The position numbers and the translations under genes were made by a program. A stretch of 64,000 nucleotides of DNA from Patescibacteria group bacterium (GTDB taxonomy: Bacteria; Patescibacteriota; Minisyncoccia; Phycocordibacterales; PALSA-1337). The notes beneath the pieces are model-generated. The model had not been told where the DNA came from. It saw only the letters and a program-made list of their open reading frames with translations, and made no database searches. Shown piece after piece: positions 8,447 to 58,545 of the stretch (its first letter is position 1; every line of letters starts with the position of its first letter). The DNA lies in assembly GCA_038064415.1 (NCBI GenBank), contig JBBTTD010000001.1:13738-77737 (forward strand), read 5' to 3'.

Positions 8447-8498
8447 AACTTTTGTCTCCAGTTTGTTGTGAGTCAATTTTTCGGCAAATTCGGAATTG

Positions 8499-8571
8499 TG
8501 GACCCGAGCGGACTTGAACCGCTTGCCTCCTCATTGCAAATGAGGCGCTCTACCAGATGAGCTACGGGCCC
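8499..8571 (-). tRNA. tRNA-Ala (anticodon TGC)
   Basis: Reverse complement reads GGGCCCGTAGCTCATCTGGTAGAGCGCCTCATTTGCAATGAGG...GGTTCAAGTCCGCTCGGGTCCA. It has a cloverleaf, the G3:U70 Ala identity pair and anticodon loop tTTGCaa. CCA is not encoded. Confidence 0.85.
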
Positions 8572-8864: not shown

Positions 8865-8883
8865 TCTGATTTGCGTGTCAACA

Positions 8884-8915
8884 AAAAATCACACATTTAT
8901 GTGTGATTTTTTGTA
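8884..8915. terminator. Bidirectional rho-independent terminator
   Basis: AAAAAATCACACAT-ttat-GTGTGATTTTTT lies between the convergent small ORF (+) and the DUF378 gene (-). Confidence 0.7.
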
Positions 8916-10894: not shown

Positions 10895-10968
10895 TGGTGG
10901 ACCTACCGAGAATCGGACTCGGGTCTCGGCAATGCGAATGCCGCGTCGTACCACTAGACCATAGGTCC
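10895..10968 (-). tRNA. Atypical tRNA, anticodon CGC (nominally Ala) but without G3:U70
   Basis: Reverse complement reads GGACCTATGGTCTAGTGGTACGACGCGGCATTCGCATTGCCGAGACCCGAGTCCGATTCTCGGTAGGTCCACCA. The cloverleaf folds, with anticodon loop ttCGCat, a 4-nt variable loop, T-loop TCCGATT (C at position 55) and an encoded CCA. The acceptor 3:70 pair is A:U. Confidence 0.55.
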
Positions 10969-10991: not shown

Positions 10992-11067
10992 TGGTGGACC
11001 ATAGCGGACTTGAACCGCTTACCTCACCCATGCCATGGGTGCGCTCTACCAGATGAGCTAATGGCCC
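10992..11067 (-). tRNA. tRNA-Ala (anticodon GGC)
   Basis: Reverse complement reads GGGCCATTAGCTCATCTGGTAGAGCGCACCCATGGCATGGGTGAGG...GGTTCAAGTCCGCTATGGTCCACCA. It has G3:U70, anticodon loop atGGCat and an encoded CCA. Confidence 0.85.
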
Positions 11068-20329: not shown

Positions 20330-20335
20330 TAAAAT

Positions 20336-20379
20336 CAAGGTCGGACCTTGGGTGATTTGGAGCTAAGGTCCGACCTTGA
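20336..20379. repeat. Palindromic element family 1: two AAGGTCGGACCTT-type units in inverted orientation
   Basis: CAAGGTCGGACCTTGGgtgatttggagCTAAGGTCCGACCTTG. The exact reverse complement of this 43-bp sequence recurs at 50806-50850. Confidence 0.8.
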
Positions 20380-20416
20380 TTTTACGAACTTCCTCCATAT
20401 TTGTTATACTATCTTC

Positions 20417-22582
20417 ATGATTCCAGACAAGTTTCTCAAGCCCTACGATCCTACCAGCACGGAAGACAGGATTTATGCCCTCTGGGAAAAGAGTGGCTTT
20501 TTCAATCCCGATAAATTGCCCGAGCGTAATAAAAAAGGCGAACCATTTTCCATAGTTTTGCCACCACCGAATGTCACTGGAGTTTTACATATGGGCTCGG
20601 CATTGATGCTTGCCATTGAGGATATTATGGTTCGCTACGCGCGAATGAAAGGGAAACAGACGCTTTGGATTCCTGGGACTGATCATGCCGCTATTGCCAC
20701 TCAAGCGGTTGTGGAAAAAGACATTCAAAGAAAAGAAGACAAATCTCGTCATGATCTCGGCAGGGAAGAAATGCTCCGACGTATTGGTACGCATGTTCAA
20801 ACTACCCATGACATTATTGTAAGTCAGATGCGTAAGATGGGCGCTTCAATTGATTGGTCTCGGGAAGCTTTCACTCTTGACGATAAGCGCAATCTGGCCG
20901 TTCGCACGGCTTTCAAAAAAATGTATGATGATGGTTTGATATACCGTGGTTATCGCGTAGTCAATTGGGATCCAAAAGGTCAGACTACTATTTCTGATGA
21001 TGAAATAGTGTACGAAACAAGAAAGACGAAACTTTACACCTTCAGGTACTCAAAAGATATACCTATTTCTATCTCCACGACGCGTCCGGAGACCAAATTG
21101 GGTGATACTGCTATCGCCGTAAATCCTGACGATCCGCGCTACAAAAAATATATCGGCGAGGAGTTTGACGCGGTCTTTGCTGGTGAACCGATTCACCTCA
21201 AAGTCATTGCCGATGCTTCAGTAGAATTAGAATTCGGCACCGGCGCTCTCGGTGTAACTCCCGCTCATTCAATTGCTGATTGGGAAATGGCCCAAAGGCA
21301 CAGTTTACCACTGAAACAAGTTATTAATGAATACGCAAAAATGACTGTTGGATTGGATGGCATAAAAGATAAAAAGACAACCGAAGCGCGCGAAGCCGTG
21401 GTTGACTGGCTCAAAAAAGAAGGTTTATTGGAGAAAGAAGAAGATATTGAACATAATATAAGTTTAGCGGAAAGAACGGGTGGAATCGTGGAACCATTGC
21501 CAAAATTGCAGTGGTTTGTGGCGGTTAATAGAGAATTCAAAAGAGAAGGGGTGACTTTCACATTAAAACAATTAATGACGCGTGTCGTTGAAACGGATCA
21601 AGTCCAATTCATTCCCGATCGTTTCAGAGATGTTTATCATCATTGGATCGGAAGTCTTCGTGATTGGTGTATTTCAAGGCAGATTTGGTATGGGCACAGG
21701 ATTCCAGTTTGGTACAAAAATCAGGAGATCTATGTCGGAGTTGAAGCGCCAAAAGGAAATGATTGGATCCAAGATGAAGACACTCTTGATACATGGTTTT
21801 CATCTGGTCTTTGGACTTTCTCAACTCTTGGTTGGCCAGACGAAAAAGAATTTAACATCAATCGCAAGTATCACCCAACCACTATTTTAGAAACTGGTTC
21901 TGATATTATCTTTTTTTGGGTAGCGCGCATGATTCTGATGAGTACTTATTTATTAGACGAAGTCCCGTTCAAGACGGTATATCTTCATGGTCTAGTTCGT
22001 GATGGTAAAGGTAGGAAAATAAGTAAGTCGCTCGGTAATAACATAGACCCTCTTGAAATGATCATTAAATATGGAGCTGACGCGGTGCGCATGGCACTTA
22101 TTGTAGCCGTCGGTCCTGGTAATGACAGTAAGGTTGATGAGCAGAAGATTAAGGCATATAAATTATTTAGTAACAAAATTTGGAATATTGCCAGATTTAT
22201 TTTGAGTGCAACCGAGAATGTCAAATATTCAGCTGAATTTTCAGAGTGGAGCGATACTGATAAGAAACACATTGAGGTCTTGAATGATTTGATTAAAGAG
22301 ATTACTTCCGAAATGGATGAATACAAGTTTTATTTAGTTGGCGAAAAGCTTTATCACTATGTCTGGCATGAATTTGCCGATAAAATCATTGAGGAAAGTA
22401 AGTCAATAATTGACGGCACTGACGAAAAAGTCAAAAATTCCCGTATTCAATTTTTGTTTTACGCTTTACGCGCGATCCTTAGACTACTTCATCCATTTAT
22501 GCCATTTGTGACAGAGGAGATTTGGCGGGAAGTGGGGAAGAGTAAATCATTATTGATGGTAGAGGAGTGGCCGAGATATTAA
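20417..22582 (+). CDS. valS: Valyl-tRNA synthetase (short form, no C-terminal coiled coil)
   Basis: PPPNVTGVLHMGSA (HIGH-region variant), the WIPGTDHAAIATQ motif and KISKSLGN (KMSKS). The start is moved to the Met at 20417 because the upstream part of the ORF overlaps the palindromic element. Confidence 0.8.
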   Translation: MIPDKFLKPYDPTSTEDRIYALWEKSGFFNPDKLPERNKKGEPFSIVLPPPNVTGVLHMGSALMLAIEDIMVRYARMKGKQTLWIPGTDHAAIATQAVVEKDIQRKEDKSRHDLGREEMLRRIGTHVQTTHDIIVSQMRKMGASIDWSREAFTLDDKRNLAVRTAFKKMYDDGLIYRGYRVVNWDPKGQTTISDDEIVYETRKTKLYTFRYSKDIPISISTTRPETKLGDTAIAVNPDDPRYKKYIGEEFDAVFAGEPIHLKVIADASVELEFGTGALGVTPAHSIADWEMAQRHSLPLKQVINEYAKMTVGLDGIKDKKTTEAREAVVDWLKKEGLLEKEEDIEHNISLAERTGGIVEPLPKLQWFVAVNREFKREGVTFTLKQLMTRVVETDQVQFIPDRFRDVYHHWIGSLRDWCISRQIWYGHRIPVWYKNQEIYVGVEAPKGNDWIQDEDTLDTWFSSGLWTFSTLGWPDEKEFNINRKYHPTTILETGSDIIFFWVARMILMSTYLLDEVPFKTVYLHGLVRDGKGRKISKSLGNNIDPLEMIIKYGADAVRMALIVAVGPGNDSKVDEQKIKAYKLFSNKIWNIARFILSATENVKYSAEFSEWSDTDKKHIEVLNDLIKEITSEMDEYKFYLVGEKLYHYVWHEFADKIIEESKSIIDGTDEKVKNSRIQFLFYALRAILRLLHPFMPFVTEEIWREVGKSKSLLMVEEWPRY

Positions 22583-22583
22583 T

Positions 22584-22602
22584 GTGAAGGTCAGGCCTTC
22601 AC
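22584..22602. repeat. Palindromic element family 2 (GTGAAGGTCAGGCCTTCAC)
   Basis: Begins 2 nt after the valS stop. Near-identical copies occur at 39635-39653 (reverse orientation, 1 mismatch) and 56586-56604. Confidence 0.75.
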
Positions 22603-32283: not shown

Positions 32284-32323
32284 AGCGAGGTCCGACCTTG
32301 ATATATTGAGGTCGGACCTCGCT
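32284..32323. repeat. Palindromic element family 1 (AGCGAGGTCCGACCTTGatatatTGAGGTCGGACCTCGCT)
   Basis: A perfect hairpin directly after the rpoB stop. It shares the GCGAGGTC(C/G)GACCTCGC core with 37762-37786. Confidence 0.8.
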
Positions 32324-37724: not shown

Positions 37725-37761
37725 ACTCTGATATTTGGCAAGGCCTACCCTTGTCTAAATT

Positions 37762-37786
37762 CTTAGCGAGGTCGGACCTCGCTAAG
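37762..37786. repeat. Palindromic element family 1 (CTTAGCGAGGTCGGACCTCGCTAAG, a perfect 25-bp palindrome)
   Basis: Sits between the convergent SLFN-like gene and typA; a partial extra copy CCGACCTCGC lies at 37805-37814. Confidence 0.8.
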
Positions 37787-39587
37787 ATATTAAATCCTTC
37801 CTTTCCGACCTCGCCCGATCTAATTCTGTCAAAAACTTTTTGCGTAGGCGAACACTTTTTGGAGTAATTTCCAAATATTCATCATCACGCATCAATTCCA
37901 GACCTCTTTCAATAGACAATTCAAATGGTGGTACCAGCATCAACGCCTCGTCTTTACCCGACGAACGCATATTACTCATAGCTTTACCTTTTGTTGGATT
38001 GACATCCATATCGTCGCCTTTGGCAGTATCACCAATAACCATACCTTCGTAAACTTCAACTGCTGGTCCTACGAAGAGGCGACCGCGATCTTGAAGATTC
38101 CAAAGTGAGAAGCCAAGAGTTTTGCCAGAAGTCATAGATGTCATTGAGCCGGTTTCGCGTTTTTCTATTTCGCCGACATGATTTTTAAATTCCGTAACTC
38201 GACTAGACATGATACCTTCACCTTTTGTGTCAATTGTAAATGCGTTACGATAACCCAAAAGACCGCGAGTTGGAATTTCAAAGACCATGCGTACTTGATT
38301 GCCATGAGCTTTCATGTCATTCATGATTCCTTTTCTTTTGCCTAGAGTTTCTATAATTGTCCCAGAATATTCTTGCGGACAATCAATGATCACTTCCTCA
38401 AAAGGTTCTAACATTTTGTCATTTTCTTCTTTAACAATGACTTTTGGCTGTGAGACTTGTAGTTCATATCCTTCGCGACGCATATTTTCTAGTAAAATAG
38501 CGATATGGAGCTCACCTCTGCCAAATACATTCAGGTATTCGTTTGAAGAAAAGTCAACTTTTAAACCGACATTTGTTTCTAATTCTTTGTGGAGCCGTTC
38601 ACGGATTTGTCGGCCAGTTACAAAAGTCCCTTCGCGTCCGGCGAAAGGTGAATTGTTAACTAAAAATTGCAGAGAAATCGTCGGTTCATCAACAGTAATG
38701 GCCGGAAGTGGCTGTGAGTTTTCATTATCGGTAATTGTCTCGCCAATATAAATGTTAGGAATACCAGCGACGGTAATAATATCACCAGATTCTGCTTGAT
38801 CAATTTCTACACGCTTTTTTCCTTCAAAAGTGAATAATTTAGTAATTTTACCTGTAAATGATTTGCCATTGATGTCTTTAACCCAGACACTTTGGCCATT
38901 TTTTATTATTCCATTATAAATACGGCAAATGGCGAGGCGACCAAGGAAATTGTCATAACTTAGATTAAATACTTGTGCTTGAAGTGAATTGTCAGTTATG
39001 CCGCTAAGACTTTTTTTATTTGCCGGTGGTACATGCTCAAGAATAGTATCCAAAAGTGGTGTCAGATCTTTGGAGTCGTCAATTAAAGATTTTTTCGCGA
39101 TTCCAGTTCGGCCAATAGCATAAATAGTAGGGAAATCAATCTGACTATCATGCGCGCCAAGTTCCATAAAAAGCTCTAGGACTTCGTCATGAACACGAAG
39201 CGGATTGGCTGCTGGTTTATCAATTTTGTTGATTATTACAATAGGTTTCAATCCTAATTCAAGTGATTTCTTCAAGACAAAGCGAGTCTGTGGCATAGGA
39301 CCTTCTTGGGCGTCTACGACTAAAAGAACAGTGTCAATTGAACGAAGAACGCGTTCAACTTCAGATCCGAAATCAGCATGGCCTGGAGTGTCCACAATGT
39401 TGATTTTGGTACCCTTATACATTATTGAGGTATTTTTAGCGTATATCGTAATACCGCGCTCCTGTTCGAGCGCGTTTGAGTCCATTGTACCTTCGTCACC
39501 ATGACCGCATTGGGCCATGATAGCGTCAGTCAGCGTAGTCTTCCCATGATCTACGTGAGCGATAATTGCAATATTACGAATCTCCAT
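37782..39587 (-). CDS. typA: Translational GTPase TypA/BipA
   Basis: MEIRNIAIIAHVDHGKTTLTDAIM, the DTPGHADF and NKID G motifs, and an EF-G-like domain series. The start is trimmed to the MEIRN Met. Confidence 0.85.
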   Translation of the reverse strand: MEIRNIAIIAHVDHGKTTLTDAIMAQCGHGDEGTMDSNALEQERGITIYAKNTSIMYKGTKINIVDTPGHADFGSEVERVLRSIDTVLLVVDAQEGPMPQTRFVLKKSLELGLKPIVIINKIDKPAANPLRVHDEVLELFMELGAHDSQIDFPTIYAIGRTGIAKKSLIDDSKDLTPLLDTILEHVPPANKKSLSGITDNSLQAQVFNLSYDNFLGRLAICRIYNGIIKNGQSVWVKDINGKSFTGKITKLFTFEGKKRVEIDQAESGDIITVAGIPNIYIGETITDNENSQPLPAITVDEPTISLQFLVNNSPFAGREGTFVTGRQIRERLHKELETNVGLKVDFSSNEYLNVFGRGELHIAILLENMRREGYELQVSQPKVIVKEENDKMLEPFEEVIIDCPQEYSGTIIETLGKRKGIMNDMKAHGNQVRMVFEIPTRGLLGYRNAFTIDTKGEGIMSSRVTEFKNHVGEIEKRETGSMTSMTSGKTLGFSLWNLQDRGRLFVGPAVEVYEGMVIGDTAKGDDMDVNPTKGKAMSNMRSSGKDEALMLVPPFELSIERGLELMRDDEYLEITPKSVRLRKKFLTELDRARSERKDLIS

Positions 39588-39634: not shown

Positions 39635-39653
39635 GTGAGGGCCTGACCTTCAC
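39635..39653. repeat. Palindromic element family 2 (GTGAGGGCCTGACCTTCAC)
   Basis: The reverse complement differs from the 22584 copy at one position. Located in the typA 5' region. Confidence 0.7.
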
Positions 39654-39738: not shown

Positions 39739-40875
39739 ATGAAACAAAAAGAACGAAATATTCGCCAAATAGTTGGAACACATGAAAAAAATAATCCAAC
39801 CGCGGTTGAGATAATTGACGACATTTTAGCGTATGCGGTAAAAATGAGGGCGTCGGATGTTCATTGTGATCCAAGGAAAGATGATACCCTAGTTCGTTTG
39901 AGAATTGACGGGCAAGTTGAACATGTCGGTATAATTTCCAAAAAAATTCATGAAGAAATGATATCTCGGTTGAAAATTTTATCTGGCGCGAGGACTGATA
40001 TTCACGCGATTCCTCAAGATGGTAGGTGGAGAGCTGACATTGATGATCAGACATTCCATATTCGGATCTCATTCATGCCGACCTATAATGGTGAAAACGC
40101 GGTTATGCGTCTCTTACCCACAGTTGTCTCTGAAGAAATTACTTTTGCCAAGCTTGGTTTTAATCCTGACCATGTTCGTTCTATCGCCACGACTTTGAAG
40201 AGAACCTCTGGTTTAGTTTTAGTTACTGGACCAACTGGCTCCGGAAAGACAACCACTCTTCATACTTGTTTGACGCTCAAATCACGAGAGTCATTATCTA
40301 TCATTACTCTAGAAGATCCAATTGAGTATGAGATTCCGTCAGTCCGTCAAGTTCATATTCATCACAATCATGGAGTTACATTTGCTTCAGGATTGCGTTC
40401 CGCTCTTCGCCAGGATCCTGATGTAATTATGGTTGGAGAGATTCGTGACACTGAAACCGCGCGAGTTGCGATTCACACGGCGCTAACGGGTCATTTGGTT
40501 TTATCAACGCTTCATACCAATTCAGCGCTTGAAGCCATTCCACGGCTTGTGGATATGGGCATTGATCACTATCTTTTGGCTTCAACCTTGAAGCTGGTCG
40601 TTGCCCAACGATTGGTTAGGGCAATTTGTCAAACTTGCTTTTTGTCCGGCTGTTCGGGATGCAGAAATAGTGGTTATCTTGGTCGATCTGTTATTGCTGA
40701 AGTCTGTGAAATTGATTCGGGAATGAAAAAGCTGATCACTGATAAAGAAAGCGTGTCTGCCTGTTTGGCCTATGCCAAAGTCCAATGTTTTCGGCCGATG
40801 GTTGAAGATGGCTATGAAAAGGTTGAATGGGGAATTACCACGAAAGAGGAGGTGATGAGAGTGTTATTTGAGTGA
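39739..40875 (+). CDS. Type IV pilus / type II secretion assembly ATPase (PilB/GspE family, compact)
   Basis: Walker A VLVTGPTGSGKTTTL, Asp box LRQDPDVIMVGEIRD, His box LSTLHTNSA and a C-terminal tetra-Cys motif (CQTCFLSGCSGC). Confidence 0.8.
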   Translation: MKQKERNIRQIVGTHEKNNPTAVEIIDDILAYAVKMRASDVHCDPRKDDTLVRLRIDGQVEHVGIISKKIHEEMISRLKILSGARTDIHAIPQDGRWRADIDDQTFHIRISFMPTYNGENAVMRLLPTVVSEEITFAKLGFNPDHVRSIATTLKRTSGLVLVTGPTGSGKTTTLHTCLTLKSRESLSIITLEDPIEYEIPSVRQVHIHHNHGVTFASGLRSALRQDPDVIMVGEIRDTETARVAIHTALTGHLVLSTLHTNSALEAIPRLVDMGIDHYLLASTLKLVVAQRLVRAICQTCFLSGCSGCRNSGYLGRSVIAEVCEIDSGMKKLITDKESVSACLAYAKVQCFRPMVEDGYEKVEWGITTKEEVMRVLFE

Positions 40876-45012: not shown

Positions 45013-46122
45013 ATGTCACTCTCAATCGGCATCGTCGGTCTCCCAAATGTTGGAAAATCAACCTTATTCAACGCGCTCACAAAAAAGAGCGTCCTAGTGG
45101 CAAATTATCCATTTGCGACAATTGATCCATCGGTCGGTGTCGTGGCGGTCCCGGATGATCGACTCTGGAAGTTGAGTGAATTCTCAAAATCAGCTAAAAC
45201 TATTCCTGCCGTCGTGGAATTCGTAGACATTGCGGGTTTAGTCAAAGGCGCGTCTGTCGATGAGGGACTCGGTAATCAATTCCTTTCAAATATCCGTGAG
45301 ACTGACGCTATCGCCGAAGTGGTGAGGATTTTTGAGGATGACAACATTATCCATGTTGATGGTAAAATCAATCCACTCAAGGATATTGAAGTCATAAATT
45401 TAGAACTTATTTTGGCTGATTTGCAGACAGTTTCAAAAAGGAGCTCAAATCTTGGTAAAGAAGTTAAGGCTGGCAAAAAAGAGGCGATTATTGAACAGGG
45501 TTTGATTCAGAAGTTAAAAATCGCGCTTGAAACGGGAAAATTCGCTTCTACCGTCATAGCTGATGAATTTGAGAAACCTTTTTTGAAATCACTTCACCTT
45601 CTGACATCTAAACCATTTATGTATGTTTTGAACAAGAAATCGGGTGGCAAAAATTTAGATGAATTTCAAGGTCCGACCTTGGATGAAAGATATATCTCGC
45701 TGATGGCGTTTTTTAAAGAAGTCAATGCTTCATGGGTAATTGTTGATGCCGGGATTGAACAGGAGCTCAAAGATATTGATGATAAAGATAAAAAAGAACT
45801 TCGCGAAGGTCTTGGCGCGAATGATGACGGGATTAATAATTTGATCAAAAAAGGCCACGAGCTTTTAAATTTGATTACTTACTTCACGACCGGGGAAGAC
45901 GAAAGTCGTGCCTGGACGATTAAAAAAGGTTGGACCGCGCCTGAAGCTGGTACCGCAATTCATGGTGATTTTAAGGATAAATTTATCCGCGCGGAAGTTA
46001 TTGAGTGGGATAAATTACTTGTCGCTGGTTCATTTGGCGTGGCGCGTGAAAAAGGACTTCTCCGCACGGAGGGAAAAGAGTATGTGGTCAAAGATGGGGA
46101 TGTGATGGAGTTTAAGATTTAG
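45013..46122 (+). CDS. ychF: Ribosome-binding ATPase YchF (Obg family)
   Basis: IGIVGLPNVGKSTLFNALT, G-domain motifs and a C-terminal TGS domain. Confidence 0.85.
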   Translation: MSLSIGIVGLPNVGKSTLFNALTKKSVLVANYPFATIDPSVGVVAVPDDRLWKLSEFSKSAKTIPAVVEFVDIAGLVKGASVDEGLGNQFLSNIRETDAIAEVVRIFEDDNIIHVDGKINPLKDIEVINLELILADLQTVSKRSSNLGKEVKAGKKEAIIEQGLIQKLKIALETGKFASTVIADEFEKPFLKSLHLLTSKPFMYVLNKKSGGKNLDEFQGPTLDERYISLMAFFKEVNASWVIVDAGIEQELKDIDDKDKKELREGLGANDDGINNLIKKGHELLNLITYFTTGEDESRAWTIKKGWTAPEAGTAIHGDFKDKFIRAEVIEWDKLLVAGSFGVAREKGLLRTEGKEYVVKDGDVMEFKI

Positions 46123-46530: not shown

Positions 46531-49482
46531 ATGATTACACTTATGAAAAATTCTGGCGAAAAAGTCAATCCAAAAGCGTTAAAATTACCTGCTTATGACC
46601 ATTCAAAGATAGAACCTAAGTGGCAAAAACTTTGGGAAAAACAAAAGTTTGACCAGGCCAGAGAAGATCCAAAGAAAAAGAAGTTTTACGGTTTAATTGA
46701 ATTTCCGTATCCATCCGGCGAAGGACTGCATGTTGGACATATTCGCAGTAATACAGCCATGGATATTATTGCTCGAAAGCGTCGAAGAGAAGGCTATGAA
46801 GTTTTGTTTCCTATCGGTTGGGATGCTTTTGGTCTGCCAACCGAAAATTACGCTATTAAGACTGGTATTCAGCCCGCCATAGTTACCAAAAAAAACACTG
46901 ATACATTTCGCCGACAATTGAAAGCGCTGGGTTTTTCTTTTGATTGGTCGCGTGAAATAGATACGACTGATCCCAAATACTATAAATGGACGCAGTGGAT
47001 ATTTTTGCAATTCTTTAAAAAAGGGCTGGCTTATAAAAAGAAAATGGCTATCAATTGGTGTCCAAAGGATATGATTGGTCTAGCAAATGAAGAAGTTGTA
47101 AATGGTTGTTGTGAACGATGTGGCACGCCCGTGGAAAAACGAGAGAAGGAACAATGGATGCTGGCTATTACTAAATATGCCGATCGATTAGACAGAGATT
47201 TAGATGAAGTTGATTTTCTGGAAAAGATTAAAATTCAACAAAGGAATTGGATAGGGAAGAGTGAGGGTGCGGAGATTGGGTTTAAGTTTGTCATTCCCGC
47301 CCTTGATGGAAGTCGAGGACATGCTCCAACGGGAATCCAAGATCACATTGCGAATTTTGTCTTGCTTCATGGATTTACCGCCACGCCAGATGATGATTTT
47401 CACCCTTGGCTCAAGAAAAAACTTGAAAATTTAGGATATAAAGTGCAAGCGCCGAAATTGCCGAATACTGAAAAACCCACAGAAAATGAGCAGGTTGAAT
47501 TTGTCCTAGATAATGTCAAGTTTGATGAAAATACTGTCTTACTTGGTCATAGTCTTGGTTCTGTGGTTGCTTTAAAGGTTTTAGAAAAACTTAATAAAAA
47601 GATCGCAGGACTTGTGACTGTCGGTGGATTTATTGATACAAACTTCAAAGATCATGACAGAAATTTTGCTGAAAGATTTGGATGGGACTTTGATTTTAAT
47701 AAAATAAAATTAAATGTTAGTTTTATTCGTGTTTTACACGATAAAAATGATGTAGCGATTACTGATGGTCAAGCCAAGAGATTAGCCACTGCTTTGGGAG
47801 TAAATGTTATTGAGCGCATGGCTAATGAGGGTCATTTTTGCGCAAAAGAAGAACCAGCTATATTTGAAGTCATCATACCAAGTATAAAAGTCTTCACGAC
47901 TCGCCCAGATACATTATTTGGCGTGACTTATCTGGTTCTCGCGCCTGAACATCAATTGGTAAAAGAACTTTTGCCAAATGTTCAAAATAAGAAAGAAGTT
48001 GAAGATTATATTTCCAAAACTAAAAAGGAAACTGATATTGAACGCGCTGACGCTTCAAAAGAAAAAACAGGCGTTGAGTTGAAAGGAATTAAGGTTATAA
48101 ATCCAGCAAATAACGAAGAACTACCAGTTTGGATTGCTGATTATGTTTTGGTTGACTACGGCACTGGCGCTGTAATGGCTGTGCCGGCGCATGATGAGAG
48201 GGATAAACAATTTGCCCAAAAATATAGTCTGCCAACCAAAGAAATTATTCTCGCAGATAAAAAAGAAATAATTACTGAATTTGGAAAATCAGTTACCACC
48301 TACAAACTTCGTGACTGGGTGTTTTCACGCCAAAGATACTGGGGTGAGCCCATCCCTGTAGTGCATTGCGAACAATGTGGGATTGTTCCCGTGCCAGAAA
48401 AAGATTTGCCGGTTAAATTACCGAAAGTAAAAAATTATCAGCCGACGCAGACTGGAGAATCACCGCTAGCTTCAATTGGAAAGTGGGTGAATACTAAATG
48501 TCCGAAATGTAAAGGCAAAGCTCGTCGCGAAACAGATACAATGCCTCAATGGGCTGGCTCAAGCTGGTATTATCTGCGCTACGCTGATTCAAAAAATAGT
48601 AAAGTTTTTGCCGGTAAAGATAGACTGAAGTATTGGACGCCAGTAGACTGGTACAACGGTGGAATGGAGCATACAACATTGCATCTGCTTTATTCTCGTT
48701 TTTGGCATAAATTCTTATTTGATTTAGGTTTAGTGCCGACAAAAGAACCATATCAAAAAAGAACCTCACATGGACTCATTCTAGCCGAAGGTGGCGCTAA
48801 AATGTCAAAATCAAGAGATAATATTGTCAGTCCCGACGATATTGTGAAGATTGTTGGCGCGGACTCTTTGCGTCTTTACGAAATGTTTATGGGACCCTTT
48901 GACCAACCAATCGTCTGGAATACGGATAATATTGCCGGGGTCAGGAGGTTTATTGAGCGAGTGTGGAAAATGAGAGAAAAAGTCGTTCAAAAAATGGACG
49001 AAAAGATTGATGATTTTGTGTTGATCAACAAGATTATCCACAAAGCTATCAAAAAAGTCAGCGACGATATTGAAGCGATGAGATTTAATACTGCCATCAG
49101 CGCGCTCATGATTACATTCAATGAACTTGAAAAATTCAGAGTTGTTGATATAGAACAATATGGAGTTTTTCTTAAATTACTGGCACCATTTGCGCCACAT
49201 GTGACTGAAGAATTGTGGGCATCTCTGAATCATAAAAATTCTATTCATACGACTGAATGGCCGATGTATGATCCAGTTTTGGCGATTGATTCACAGACAA
49301 CTATCGTTGTCCAAATAAATGGCAAAATGCGTGGCTCATTCACTGTTCCAATTGATATCAGTAAGGAAGAATTAGAAAATCGCGCGCGGACATTACCAGA
49401 ATCCGCGAAGTGGTTGGAAGGGAAGAGTATCATGAAGATAGTTGTTGTTCCCAATAAGTTAGTCAATTTTGTCATAAAGTAG
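46531..49482 (+). CDS. leuS: Leucyl-tRNA synthetase with an inserted alpha/beta serine-hydrolase (YdeN/RBBP9-like) domain
   Basis: Class I motifs (HVGH, KMSKS), a CP1 editing domain (TTRPDTLFGVTYLVLAPEH) and a C-terminal anticodon-binding region. About 195 extra residues (aa 254-449) lie between NWIGKSEGAEIGF and the editing domain. They include LLHGFTATPDDDFHPWL, GHSLG (GxSxG), a conserved Asp and ANEGHF. Confidence 0.85.
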   Translation: MITLMKNSGEKVNPKALKLPAYDHSKIEPKWQKLWEKQKFDQAREDPKKKKFYGLIEFPYPSGEGLHVGHIRSNTAMDIIARKRRREGYEVLFPIGWDAFGLPTENYAIKTGIQPAIVTKKNTDTFRRQLKALGFSFDWSREIDTTDPKYYKWTQWIFLQFFKKGLAYKKKMAINWCPKDMIGLANEEVVNGCCERCGTPVEKREKEQWMLAITKYADRLDRDLDEVDFLEKIKIQQRNWIGKSEGAEIGFKFVIPALDGSRGHAPTGIQDHIANFVLLHGFTATPDDDFHPWLKKKLENLGYKVQAPKLPNTEKPTENEQVEFVLDNVKFDENTVLLGHSLGSVVALKVLEKLNKKIAGLVTVGGFIDTNFKDHDRNFAERFGWDFDFNKIKLNVSFIRVLHDKNDVAITDGQAKRLATALGVNVIERMANEGHFCAKEEPAIFEVIIPSIKVFTTRPDTLFGVTYLVLAPEHQLVKELLPNVQNKKEVEDYISKTKKETDIERADASKEKTGVELKGIKVINPANNEELPVWIADYVLVDYGTGAVMAVPAHDERDKQFAQKYSLPTKEIILADKKEIITEFGKSVTTYKLRDWVFSRQRYWGEPIPVVHCEQCGIVPVPEKDLPVKLPKVKNYQPTQTGESPLASIGKWVNTKCPKCKGKARRETDTMPQWAGSSWYYLRYADSKNSKVFAGKDRLKYWTPVDWYNGGMEHTTLHLLYSRFWHKFLFDLGLVPTKEPYQKRTSHGLILAEGGAKMSKSRDNIVSPDDIVKIVGADSLRLYEMFMGPFDQPIVWNTDNIAGVRRFIERVWKMREKVVQKMDEKIDDFVLINKIIHKAIKKVSDDIEAMRFNTAISALMITFNELEKFRVVDIEQYGVFLKLLAPFAPHVTEELWASLNHKNSIHTTEWPMYDPVLAIDSQTTIVVQINGKMRGSFTVPIDISKEELENRARTLPESAKWLEGKSIMKIVVVPNKLVNFVIK

Positions 49483-50793: not shown

Positions 50794-50805
50794 GAAATAA
50801 AAAAA

Positions 50806-50850
50806 CCAAGGTCGGACCTTAGCTCCAAATCACCCAAGGTCCGACCTTGG
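50806..50850. repeat. Palindromic element family 1 (exact reverse complement of the 20336-20379 copy), flanked by an A-run and a T-run
   Basis: AAAAAACCAAGGTCGGACCTTagctccaaatcaccCAAGGTCCGACCTTGGTTTTTTT has the shape of a bidirectional terminator. Confidence 0.8.
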
Positions 50851-50932
50851 TTTTTTTAAATAGTCCTCGGCAATAAAAACATGTGTGCACTATTATTGTT
50901 TTTGGTTAAGCTGTTCATGTTATAATAGTGGC

Positions 50933-56585: not shown

Positions 56586-56604
56586 GTGGAGGTCAGACCT
56601 TCAC
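56586..56604. repeat. Palindromic element family 2 (GTGGAGGTCAGACCTTCAC)
   Basis: Lies in the divergent region upstream of alaS. Confidence 0.7.
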
Positions 56605-56640: not shown

Positions 56641-58545
56641 ATGAACTCCTCCAAAATTCGCCGACGATTTCTGAACTTTTTTGAGAAAAGAGGGCATGCC
56701 ATTATTGACTCGGCTTCTTTGGTTACAACTGACGAAAAAAATGTGACTGATTCCACGCTTTTTAACACTGCTGGAATGCAGCCACTTGCGCCGTATTTAC
56801 TCGGTAAAATTCATCCAAAGGGTAATCGTCTCGCAGATGTCCAAAAATGTCTTCGTACAATTGATTTGGATGATGTCGGAGATAAAACTCACGCCACCTT
56901 TTTTGAGATGCTAGGCAACTGGTCACTTGGTGATTATTTCAAAAAAGATGCTATCAATTGGAGTTATGAATTTTTGACTGACAAGAATGAAGGGCTTGGT
57001 CTTGATCCGAGTAGGCTTTATGTAACTGTTTTTGAAGGTAACTCCAACAGTCCAAAAGATGATGAAGCGGTTGAAATTTGGCAAGAGGTGTTTGCGAAAA
57101 ATAGTGTTGATATTGGTAACGATACCTCTAATATTAGAAATTCAGGACGTATTTTCTATATGCCAGCGAATGCGAATTGGTGGGAGGCAGGTGAAAATGG
57201 ACCATGTGGTCCAGATACGGAGATGTATTATGATATCACCGGTAAATTTGGGGGTAAGTGTTTGACCAAAGAGCAATTCATTGAAGCTGAAAGTCAAAAA
57301 GAAATTGTTGAGGTCTGGAATGATGTCTTTATGCAATATGAAAAGAAAAATGGCAAAATTGTCGGTAAATTGGCAAAGCCGTCAGTTGATACTGGCGCCG
57401 GATTGGAAAGATTGGCAATGATTATGCAGGGCGTGGATAATATTTATGAGACGGATTTGTTGAAGCCGGTTATGGATAATATTGAACAGAAAAAAAACAA
57501 AAAACATTTACAAGATTGGGATATTAAATCAGTTAGAATCATAGCGGATCATGTGAGGGCCGCAATATTTCTAATTGCTGATGGTGTAATCCCGTCTAAT
57601 ATAGGTAGAGGATATGTTCTACGTAAGTTGATCCGTAGAGCGATTCGCCAACAGAAACTTATTAAGTTAGAAATCAGCAATTTATCAGAATTTGTTCCTA
57701 TTGTTATTGAAATCTATAGGAAAACTTATCCTACTCTTGTTAGAAAGGAAAGACAAATCAAGGAAATTTTTAGTCAAGAAGGTGGCAAATTTATACAGGT
57801 TCTTCATAGTGGTGATCTTGAAATTGATGATTTAATCAAGAAAGCGATACATGAGAAGAGATCAATTTCTGGAAAGGAATCTTTTATTTTATACTCATCG
57901 TATGGATTTCCGATCGAAGAAACAGTTAAAATAGCAAAGACTAAAGGGATTGATGTTGACATTGTGGGATTTGAAGATGAATTCAAAAAACACCAAGAAC
58001 TTTCTCGCTCTGGCGCTGAACAAAAATTCAAGGGCGGTCTGGCTAACTCGCAAGATGAGATGGTTGTCAGATATCACACCGCTACTCATTTACTACATCA
58101 AGCTCTGCATGATGTTTTAGGTGAAGGCGCTAATCAAAAAGGCTCTAATATCACTAAAGAACGCCTGCGTTTTGATTTTTCCCATTCTGTTAGAATGGCA
58201 GATGAACAAAAAAAACGCGTTGAGGATATTGTCAATCAGAAAATCAATGAAGCATTACCCGTGAATAATGTTATTTTATCTCGCGAAGATGCCGAAAAGA
58301 CTGGCGCGCGACACTTTTTTGGAGAAAAATACGGAGATCAGATTTCAATCTTTTTTGTCGGTCACGCTTCTAGACCACCAACTATTGCTGAATTGAAAAA
58401 TGCCTATTCAAAAGAATTTTGTGGTGGACCTCATGTCAAAAATACTAAGGAACTTACCGGACCAGAAGGGAAGTGGATGTTCAAAATACAAAAAGAAGAA
58501 GCAGTCGCGCAAGGGATAAGAAGGATTAAGGCGGTATTGAATTGA
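56641..58545 (+). CDS. alaS: Alanyl-tRNA synthetase, short form lacking the C-Ala domain
   Basis: Class II catalytic core and an editing domain with the HxxxH motif (HTATHLLHQALH). Ends at 634 aa. Confidence 0.85.
   Translation: MNSSKIRRRFLNFFEKRGHAIIDSASLVTTDEKNVTDSTLFNTAGMQPLAPYLLGKIHPKGNRLADVQKCLRTIDLDDVGDKTHATFFEMLGNWSLGDYFKKDAINWSYEFLTDKNEGLGLDPSRLYVTVFEGNSNSPKDDEAVEIWQEVFAKNSVDIGNDTSNIRNSGRIFYMPANANWWEAGENGPCGPDTEMYYDITGKFGGKCLTKEQFIEAESQKEIVEVWNDVFMQYEKKNGKIVGKLAKPSVDTGAGLERLAMIMQGVDNIYETDLLKPVMDNIEQKKNKKHLQDWDIKSVRIIADHVRAAIFLIADGVIPSNIGRGYVLRKLIRRAIRQQKLIKLEISNLSEFVPIVIEIYRKTYPTLVRKERQIKEIFSQEGGKFIQVLHSGDLEIDDLIKKAIHEKRSISGKESFILYSSYGFPIEETVKIAKTKGIDVDIVGFEDEFKKHQELSRSGAEQKFKGGLANSQDEMVVRYHTATHLLHQALHDVLGEGANQKGSNITKERLRFDFSHSVRMADEQKKRVEDIVNQKINEALPVNNVILSREDAEKTGARHFFGEKYGDQISIFFVGHASRPPTIAELKNAYSKEFCGGPHVKNTKELTGPEGKWMFKIQKEEAVAQGIRRIKAVLN

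Follow-up and report, generated by a model that had tools for sequence, protein, structure and literature searches.

REP-like palindromes between genes of a Patescibacteria genome and their probable pairing with a RAYT-like transposase family

To our knowledge, work on REP/RAYT systems has dealt nearly exclusively with Proteobacteria. RAYTs are found most commonly in Pseudomonas and Enterobacteria, high-copy repeats occur in only two RAYT groups (PMC5581495), and most described REPs are marked by an unpaired GTAG or CGTC tag (PMC3733652). In titles and abstracts, no paper describing such a system in the candidate phyla radiation was found, and repeats of the REP/RAYT type are apparently undescribed for Patescibacteria.

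Here, three palindromes at gene boundaries in a 64-kb window (the whole stretch of 64,000 nucleotides that was analysed) of a Patescibacteria genome were investigated. We consider it likely that they are REP elements of a superfamily with the core AAGGTC-N-GACCTT, which extends across Patescibacteria and is paired there with a RAYT-like HUH/Y1 transposase. Like the REP/BIME elements of E. coli and their RayT (YafM, TnpA-REP), the Patescibacteria repeats are short extragenic palindromes, single or paired, and in Patescibacteria other than the present one a Y1 HUH transposase gene is directly flanked by its own repeats. Unlike the E. coli elements, with which they share no repeat sequence similarity, they are untagged and fully symmetric (9+1+9), and the Patescibacteria protein is about 70 aa longer than RayT and, in the one member with scores on record, stays below the NF047646 cut-off. 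With the REPIN-RAYT systems of Pseudomonas (Bertels & Rainey; PMC3116915, PMC5581495) they have in common inverted REP doublets folding to long hairpins (family 1 in the window, other Patescibacteria elsewhere), many repeat copies for one RAYT gene in the stretches sampled, and singlets resembling decayed remnants. They differ from these in their hosts, which have ~1-Mb Patescibacteria genomes and are not Gammaproteobacteria, in doublet spacers that are constant in length (25-26 nt) and variable in sequence, and in a copy-specific extra stem of 5-14 bp on many copies. Some copies lie in frame in ORFs (641 and 45667 of the window, 14798 of its contig extension L111), as is known from Rickettsia palindromic elements and intragenic REPs (PMC3733652); the Patescibacteria copies measure 19-27 nt versus about 100-150 nt for the Rickettsia elements, and are mostly extragenic. 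An unpaired GTAG or CGTC tag was not found in the family to which the three palindromes belong, as its ends, GTGA...TCAC, are fully paired, and the ends GTAG...CTAC of a variant from a related lineage (L124) are likewise paired. The missing tag and the full symmetry set the Patescibacteria repeats apart from described REPs.

Two palindrome families in the window

Searching the window with GTGAAGGTCAGGCCTTCAC and allowing up to three mismatches gave three matches, compared to none in 100 dinucleotide-preserving shuffles (mean 0.00, maximum 0). This bears out the original prediction of three near-identical 19-base palindromes at gene boundaries, and the neighbouring genes it had named, valS, typA and alaS, were confirmed by Pfam. 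The three copies, referred to as family 2, and the genes next to them are:

22584-22602, plus strand: family-2 singlet GTGAAGGTCAGGCCTTCAC, no mismatch to the search pattern, A12>G relative to the consensus GTGAAGGTCAGACCTTCAC
39635-39653, minus strand: family-2 singlet GTGAAGGTCAGGCCCTCAC, one mismatch to GTGAAGGTCAGGCCTTCAC, A12>G and T15>C relative to the consensus
56586-56604, plus strand: family-2 singlet GTGGAGGTCAGACCTTCAC, two mismatches to GTGAAGGTCAGGCCTTCAC, A4>G relative to the consensus
20417-22582: valS (Pfam)
37782-39587, minus strand: typA (Pfam)
39739-40875: gene of a T2SSE (PilB-like) ATPase (Pfam)
56641-58545: alaS (Pfam)

The first copy starts one base past the valS stop codon (TAA 22580-22582), and the next ORF (ATG 22664) begins 61 nt beyond the end of the copy. 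The second is located in the divergent gap between typA (ATG 39587, 47 nt off) and the PilB/T2SSE-like gene (ATG 39739, 85 nt off), the third in the divergent gap between a 176-aa ORF (ATG 56517) and alaS (ATG 56641, 36 nt off). Since the copies at 22584 and 39635 have A12>G in common, some within-lineage copying after this mutation is possible.

When the inner 11 bases, AGGTCNGACCT, were searched for, ten occurrences were detected in the window. Nine belong to a second family, family 1, and one is accounted for by the family-2 copy next to alaS. The two families share AGGTCNGACCT and differ in the outer stem, which in family 1 reads CAAGG.../...CCTTG or GCGAGG.../...CCTCGC. Both the existence of family 1 and its relation to family 2 as one of two subfamilies had been proposed from the outset and are supported here. 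The following family-1 features were annotated:

641-651: core AGGTCCGACCT, within a 702-aa ORF (21-2129)
20330-20384: REPIN-like doublet AAAATCAAGGTCGGACCTTGGGTGATTTGGAGCTAAGGTCCGACCTTGATTTT, between a cold-shock gene and valS, -37.3 kcal/mol, z -9.3
32284-32323: doublet AGCGAGGTCCGACCTTGATATATTGAGGTCGGACCTCGCT, directly 3' of the rpoB stop codon, -35.6 kcal/mol
37761-37787: singlet TCTTAGCGAGGTCGGACCTCGCTAAGA, a perfect 13+1+13 palindrome at the typA 3' end in a convergent gap, -19.1 kcal/mol
45667-45681: palindrome CAAGGTCCGACCTTG, within a YchF-like ORF (45013-46122)
50803-50857: doublet, the reverse complement of the 55-nt element at 20330-20384

The three inverted family-1 doublets fold into long hairpins (-35.6 to -37.3 kcal/mol, z about -9), while family 2 is present in the window as singlets only. 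With a repeat unit of 19-27 nt, the window harbors three family-2 copies and nine family-1 copies with the exact core, and the density of both families together is about 1 per 5 kb. The copies are biased towards extragenic positions. With the looser core AGGYCNGRCCT, nine of the 11 listed copies are intergenic in a window of which stop-to-stop ORFs make up 91%, and two copies upstream of valS were scored as coding only since the stop-to-stop ORF overshoots the real start codon. The family-1 copies in ORFs are those at 641 and 45667; the remainder is intergenic.

The window has a G+C content of 39.6%, and at gathering thresholds Rfam detected four tRNAs in it. A 2.6-kb stretch of the minus strand holds three tRNA-Ala genes (tgc, cgc and ggc; 8498-8571, 10895-10968, 10992-11067). 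The gap that follows tRNA-Ala(tgc) contains, at 8881-8914, a perfect 16+2+16 A/T-rich palindrome, ACAAAAAATCACACATTTATGTGTGATTTTTTGT, which is unrelated to the REP families. In the ORF of a class-I aminoacyl-tRNA synthetase of 983 aa (46531-49482), the synthetase segments are separated by matches to Ser_hydrolase and, weakly, to Abhydrolase_1, an unusual inserted domain; the homologue of this ORF in locus L069 carries a REP copy inside the gene.

The genome was also compared with related strains. typA and the S4 gene are encoded on the ENA contig Hain_H41_01um_R3_125 (125,387 bp; Hainich groundwater, 0.1-µm fraction). After an identical entry, AlaS relatives have at most 69% identity and come from Parcubacteria, Paceibacterota and Minisyncoccia. 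A wider search for further copies, suggested together with the original prediction, yielded one at a distance of 9 kb from the window, as well as many from other members of the Patescibacteria. The nearby one is a fourth family-2 copy, GTGAAGGTCAAACCTTCAC (L111:14798-14816; G11>A relative to the consensus), which sits in a 133-aa ORF between grpE and dnaK on the H41 contig extension. The repeat is polymorphic between strains: in the homologous ORF of the strain from the H51 well (L112) and of a Logan contig (L113) the copy is missing and the stretch is 12 nt shorter. The alaS copy is identical in the contig of the H51 sister strain, and a family-1 copy after dnaJ is common to the H41 and H51 strains. 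Beyond the 19-mer, the flanks of the four known family-2 copies do not align, and a 3' TT alone is common to the three copies of the window. The copies are therefore not pieces of a larger repeat in this genome, which had been a reservation attached to the original prediction.

Further differences were noted along these contigs. The hypothetical ORF of ~132 aa between grpE and dnaK (L111 14605-15006 versus L112 14575-14970) contains its REP copy in frame in H41 and not in H51. The entire grpE-dnaK gap differs between the two strains, and the extra sequence of H51 includes a tRNA-like stretch near L112 14360-14440. Three independent Logan assemblies of this organism (L195-L197) all have a break at one and the same point, at about position 1371 of the window, in the 702-aa ORF.

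A RAYT-like gene beside the repeat in other Patescibacteria

The pattern GTGRAGGTCAGRCCYTCAC was scanned against one genome per species (GTDB representatives) in a 596-Gb collection, and at least 109 stretches matched. Among the matches listed, 56 of 109 stretches came from at least 27 Patescibacteria assemblies (by record title), comprising Kaiserbacteria, Paceibacterota, Nomurabacteria, Parcubacteria, Minisyncoccia, two other Hainich MAGs and MAGs labelled 'Saccharibacteria'. The latter labels look unreliable, as neighbouring genes are 60-80% identical to and syntenic with those of a Kaiserbacteria MAG; therefore, no cross-class spread is claimed. The other 53 listed stretches are single matches in unrelated, mostly G+C-rich genomes, which is about chance level (596e9 x 2 x 8 / 4^19, that is ~35 matches expected by arithmetic for the whole collection). 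In 2.9 million viral contigs no consensus palindrome was detected, and there is thus no evidence for a phage as vehicle.

The Patescibacteria matches nearly always have the perfect palindrome GTGAAGGTC[A/T]GACCTTCAC, which is taken as the consensus and mostly has yT in front of it and Ar behind it. It occurs as singlets or as doublets 44-45 nt apart. The 18 repeat-containing stretches (144 kb) of Kaiserbacteria JACPGH01 harbor 37 copies, 30 of them in 15 doublets, and the spacing is 44-45 nt in 11 of the 15. One RAYT gene stands against these 37 repeats in the sampled stretches, which are the repeat-containing ones only. As sampled, the JACPGH01 population has the REPIN/RAYT pattern of Pseudomonas and E. 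coli (PMC3116915, PMC5581495) and not that of a multi-copy insertion sequence. Family-1-like doublets with a period of 27-28 nt and similar spacers were also found in a Paceibacterota MAG and a Nomurabacteria MAG.

Two arrangements of REP copies next to other genes were observed. In JACPGH01, two identical REP doublets with the same 25-nt spacer bracket a 165-aa ORF without Pfam match (L018 6616-7448), a candidate for a cargo gene or for another unit that is mobilised. In Kaiserbacteria-like loci (L036, L097, L070), the motif GTTACACGCGAAAC recurs near REP copies 3' of the same ~500-aa gene. REPs pile up in this gap in four species and their flanks do not align. A single conserved insertion with compensatory stem changes was considered for this gap and dropped, as the sequences right next to the repeats cannot be aligned; it is more cautious to assume a hot spot or turnover.

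The association with a transposase gene was detected in a further JACPGH01 locus (L014), in which two palindrome doublets bracket a 236-aa ORF, the nearest palindromes lying 24 nt upstream and 10 nt downstream. A tblastn search with this protein gave homologues in six more repeat-bearing loci, five of which have the palindrome immediately on both sides. The homologue in L031, 50% identical, is flanked by the variant GGCACAAGTCTGACTTGTGCC, so that in all seven loci a palindrome (in L031 the variant) lies within tens of bases on both sides of the ~236-aa protein. These seven loci were found via the repeat and are biased towards adjacency. Four further homologues (P0013, P0041, P0076 and P0101) were picked from the protein list and not by the repeat, and each of the four genes has palindromes of this build on its flanks, no more than about 180 nt away. 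The sequences of these palindromes shift with the protein lineage (TTGGGAAGGTCTGACCTTCCCAA; TGTTAAAGTCCGACTTTAACA; GGAAAGTCTGACTTTCC, five copies; TGGGAAAGTTAAACTTTCCCA), and GGGAAGGTCWGACCTTCCC, GGAAAGTCWGACTTTCC and GGGAAAGTTWAACTTTCCC are cognate palindromes co-varying with the protein at the protein-chosen loci. Taken together, the palindrome, or a variant of it that co-varies with the protein, borders the RAYT gene at 11 of 11 loci examined in other Patescibacteria. Co-variation of repeat and enzyme, as found at the four protein-chosen loci, is expected if the protein recognises the hairpin.

The ~236-aa protein contains the motifs NHFHLL (HUH) and FYILVKN or YIHLNP (Y). H84 and H86 of NHFHLL and Y144 are invariant; the tyrosine is part of FY(I/V)LxKN, which corresponds to YIHLNP in the Nomurabacteria member. 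All 17 aligned members match Pfam Y1_Tnp (PF01797; best E 1.7e-9) and 16 of the 17 match NCBIfam NF047646, REP-associated tyrosine transposase (best E 1.8e-12), while P0001, the only member with scores on record, lies below the curated cut-offs (27.4 versus 80 bits for NF047646, 22.2 versus 23 for PF01797). In a two-sequence BLASTP of the Nomurabacteria protein with RayT of E. coli K-12, HUH and Y-I-x-x-N-P align (E 1e-5), and a profile alignment with E. coli RayT adds PFSS/PFST to these two motifs. The RAYT-like family comprises at least 490 clusters at E < 1e-5, and its members are called 'transposase' or 'hypothetical' in the sources. Solved structures gave marginal matches only in sequence and profile searches (ISDra2 TnpA, E 0.92), and a structure model of the RAYT-like protein from a 30-sequence alignment (mean pLDDT 55, pTM 0.47) was too poor for use. 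By tblastn and six-frame profile search, no RAYT homologue was detected in the window, L001 or L111 to L113, including ~9 kb of extra contig.

The match to Pfam Y1_Tnp, 'Transposase IS200 like', raises the question whether the palindromes stem, as its ends or remnants, from a common multi-copy insertion sequence of the IS200/IS605 type and are not part of a domesticated single-copy RAYT system. The enzymes of IS200/IS605 elements (IS608, ISDra2) belong to the same superfamily and single-stranded DNA hairpins are their expected recognition element; in addition, both flanks in L060 consist of a direct repeat, about 40 nt in length, with the palindrome in it. Unlike in IS200/IS605, however, the Patescibacteria hairpins are dispersed alone and far outnumber the gene, with one gene copy versus 37 repeat copies in the sampled stretches of the best-sampled genome, and the left and right ends of the unit are the same palindrome. 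The repeats are short, symmetric and doublet-forming, tnpB is missing as no TnpB partner was found next to the RAYT genes of the four protein-chosen loci, and the best curated match is the REP-associated family. An origin from an ordinary insertion sequence is therefore improbable, and a REP/RAYT system is preferred.

Apart from the symmetric core, 22 of 119 copies in other Patescibacteria (about 18%) extend into a perfect lower stem of 5-14 bp that is different at every copy, versus a chance expectation of about 1.6% (arithmetic, allowing for the first two consensus flank positions). In L097 3625-3671, L057 5350-5392 and L205 287-325, for example, the REP core is located at the tip of such a hairpin. 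Extra stems are also present on copies flanking RAYT genes and are absent from the window copies. As a speculation, they may arise from a process that lengthens palindromes, for instance by fold-back priming or by template switching where the RAYT has nicked the hairpin; we know of no description of such a process for REPs. Insertion into pre-existing terminator loops was rejected as their origin, since no loop residues are left and most extended copies are without T-runs.

Position of the palindromes relative to transcription and DNA uptake

The original prediction held that the palindromes are not simply terminators, and the present data agree with it. Two of the three family-2 copies have divergent genes on their two sides, so that transcripts are not expected to end there, and a terminator scan detected neither a terminator-like site nor a T-run at any of the three loci. 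It is unlikely that the palindromes are transcript hairpins, either intrinsic terminators or 3'-end stabilisers, that are kept for this function. The copy one base past the valS stop codon would fit such a role, as it folds in RNA with its flanks at -12.8 kcal/mol (z -3.35), and so would the family-1 copies after rpoB and typA and the preference of described REPs for sites downstream of genes (PMC3733652). However, the stems of the family-2 copies contain mismatches, and on neither strand does the alaS copy exceed shuffles in folding stability (z -1.66 and -0.62).

A special link to the promoters of translation genes, which had also been proposed, was not supported. At the typA loci of related metagenomic lineages (62-88% aa identity, 621 kb), 79 of 80 are without the core next to typA. 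The exception, L124, has a doublet of a different subfamily, GCATAGGTCTGACCTCTGCAGAGGTCTGACCTCTAC, between the upstream terminator and the -35 of typA; by appearance, this repeat entered the same tolerated gap on a separate occasion. This absence counts against a palindrome acting as operator through which one dimeric transcription factor would control typA, alaS and the ORF after valS together, a reading that we regard as very unlikely. It would be in line with the 9+1+9 palindrome and with the position of the copies 36-61 nt upstream of start codons. Moreover, the typA copy ends 6 nt upstream of the promoter-like TTGACA-17-TATTCT (39628-39600), and with two family-2 copies located 6 nt and 0 nt, respectively, before a -35-like position, these promoters may be affected. 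Yet no two of the three sites have the same distance to the putative -10, and the same sequence flanks transposase genes, forms doublets, is present in 37 copies in 144 kb elsewhere and occurs in ORFs. The three copies all point the same way with respect to the gene that follows them; an agreement of this kind has a chance probability of ~0.25 (arithmetic) and is therefore not significant. At Rfam gathering thresholds, no T-box or other leader was detected near valS or alaS.

Pilus genes (T2SSE, T2SSF) adjoin the copy at 39635 and the motif is common to many Patescibacteria, as might be expected from a DNA-uptake signal of a type IV pilus or competence machinery with inverted pairs as in Neisseria. 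The half-sites AAGGTC/GACCTT occur 48 times versus 27 expected, but about 22 of the 48 lie in palindromes; the excess is accounted for by the palindromes themselves and single half-sites are not enriched, which argues against an uptake signal. The combined density of about 1 per 5 kb, the co-variation of the core with the adjacent transposase and the 0 matches in the viral contigs likewise make it extremely unlikely.

Of the earlier interpretation, the two subfamilies and the rejection of simple terminators were thus retained, while the link to translation promoters was given up; the palindromes are best read as REP/RAYT repeats in non-coding gaps.

Proposed spread of the repeats and its meaning for Patescibacteria

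Most likely, the window copies are slightly decayed REP copies that were scattered by the RAYT enzyme family, and not gene-specific regulators or terminators. By analogy to E. coli RayT and the TnpA of IS200/IS605, the palindrome would fold to a hairpin on single-stranded DNA, and the RAYT would recognise, cut and rejoin this hairpin and in this way mobilise it. Copies would then spread as singlets or inverted doublets (REPINs) into insertion-tolerant sites, which in a genome that is ~90% coding would be the short gaps that follow stop codons or precede promoters. Where the window copies lie would accordingly reflect insertion tolerance and not a regulatory role. The valS mRNA would carry its copy at the 3' end, which might gain some protection from it as a side effect. 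Since the window copies are singlets and each is one to two substitutions away from the consensus, they are probably old and immobile relics.

More tentatively, and with considerable doubt, the hairpin core AAGGTC-N-GACCTT and the RAYT might form one old, mostly vertically kept partnership across much of Patescibacteria. This is suggested by the identical 19-mer that flanks RAYTs only 25-30% identical to one another and by RAYT neighbourhoods that are syntenic between species.

For the window, the preferred reading means that regulation of valS, typA or alaS does not need to be invoked. It would provide annotators with a name for a recurrent intergenic motif and for the family of at least 490 clusters now called 'transposase' or 'hypothetical', and it would explain some assembly breaks around RAYT genes, most RAYT-carrying contigs being only 1-2 kb long. 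It would also mean that even strongly reduced genomes, such as those of ultra-small groundwater Patescibacteria, carry self-propagating hairpin repeats. If the partnership is indeed old, streamlined ~1-Mb genomes would maintain a REPIN population, which would suggest a function at the level of the host.
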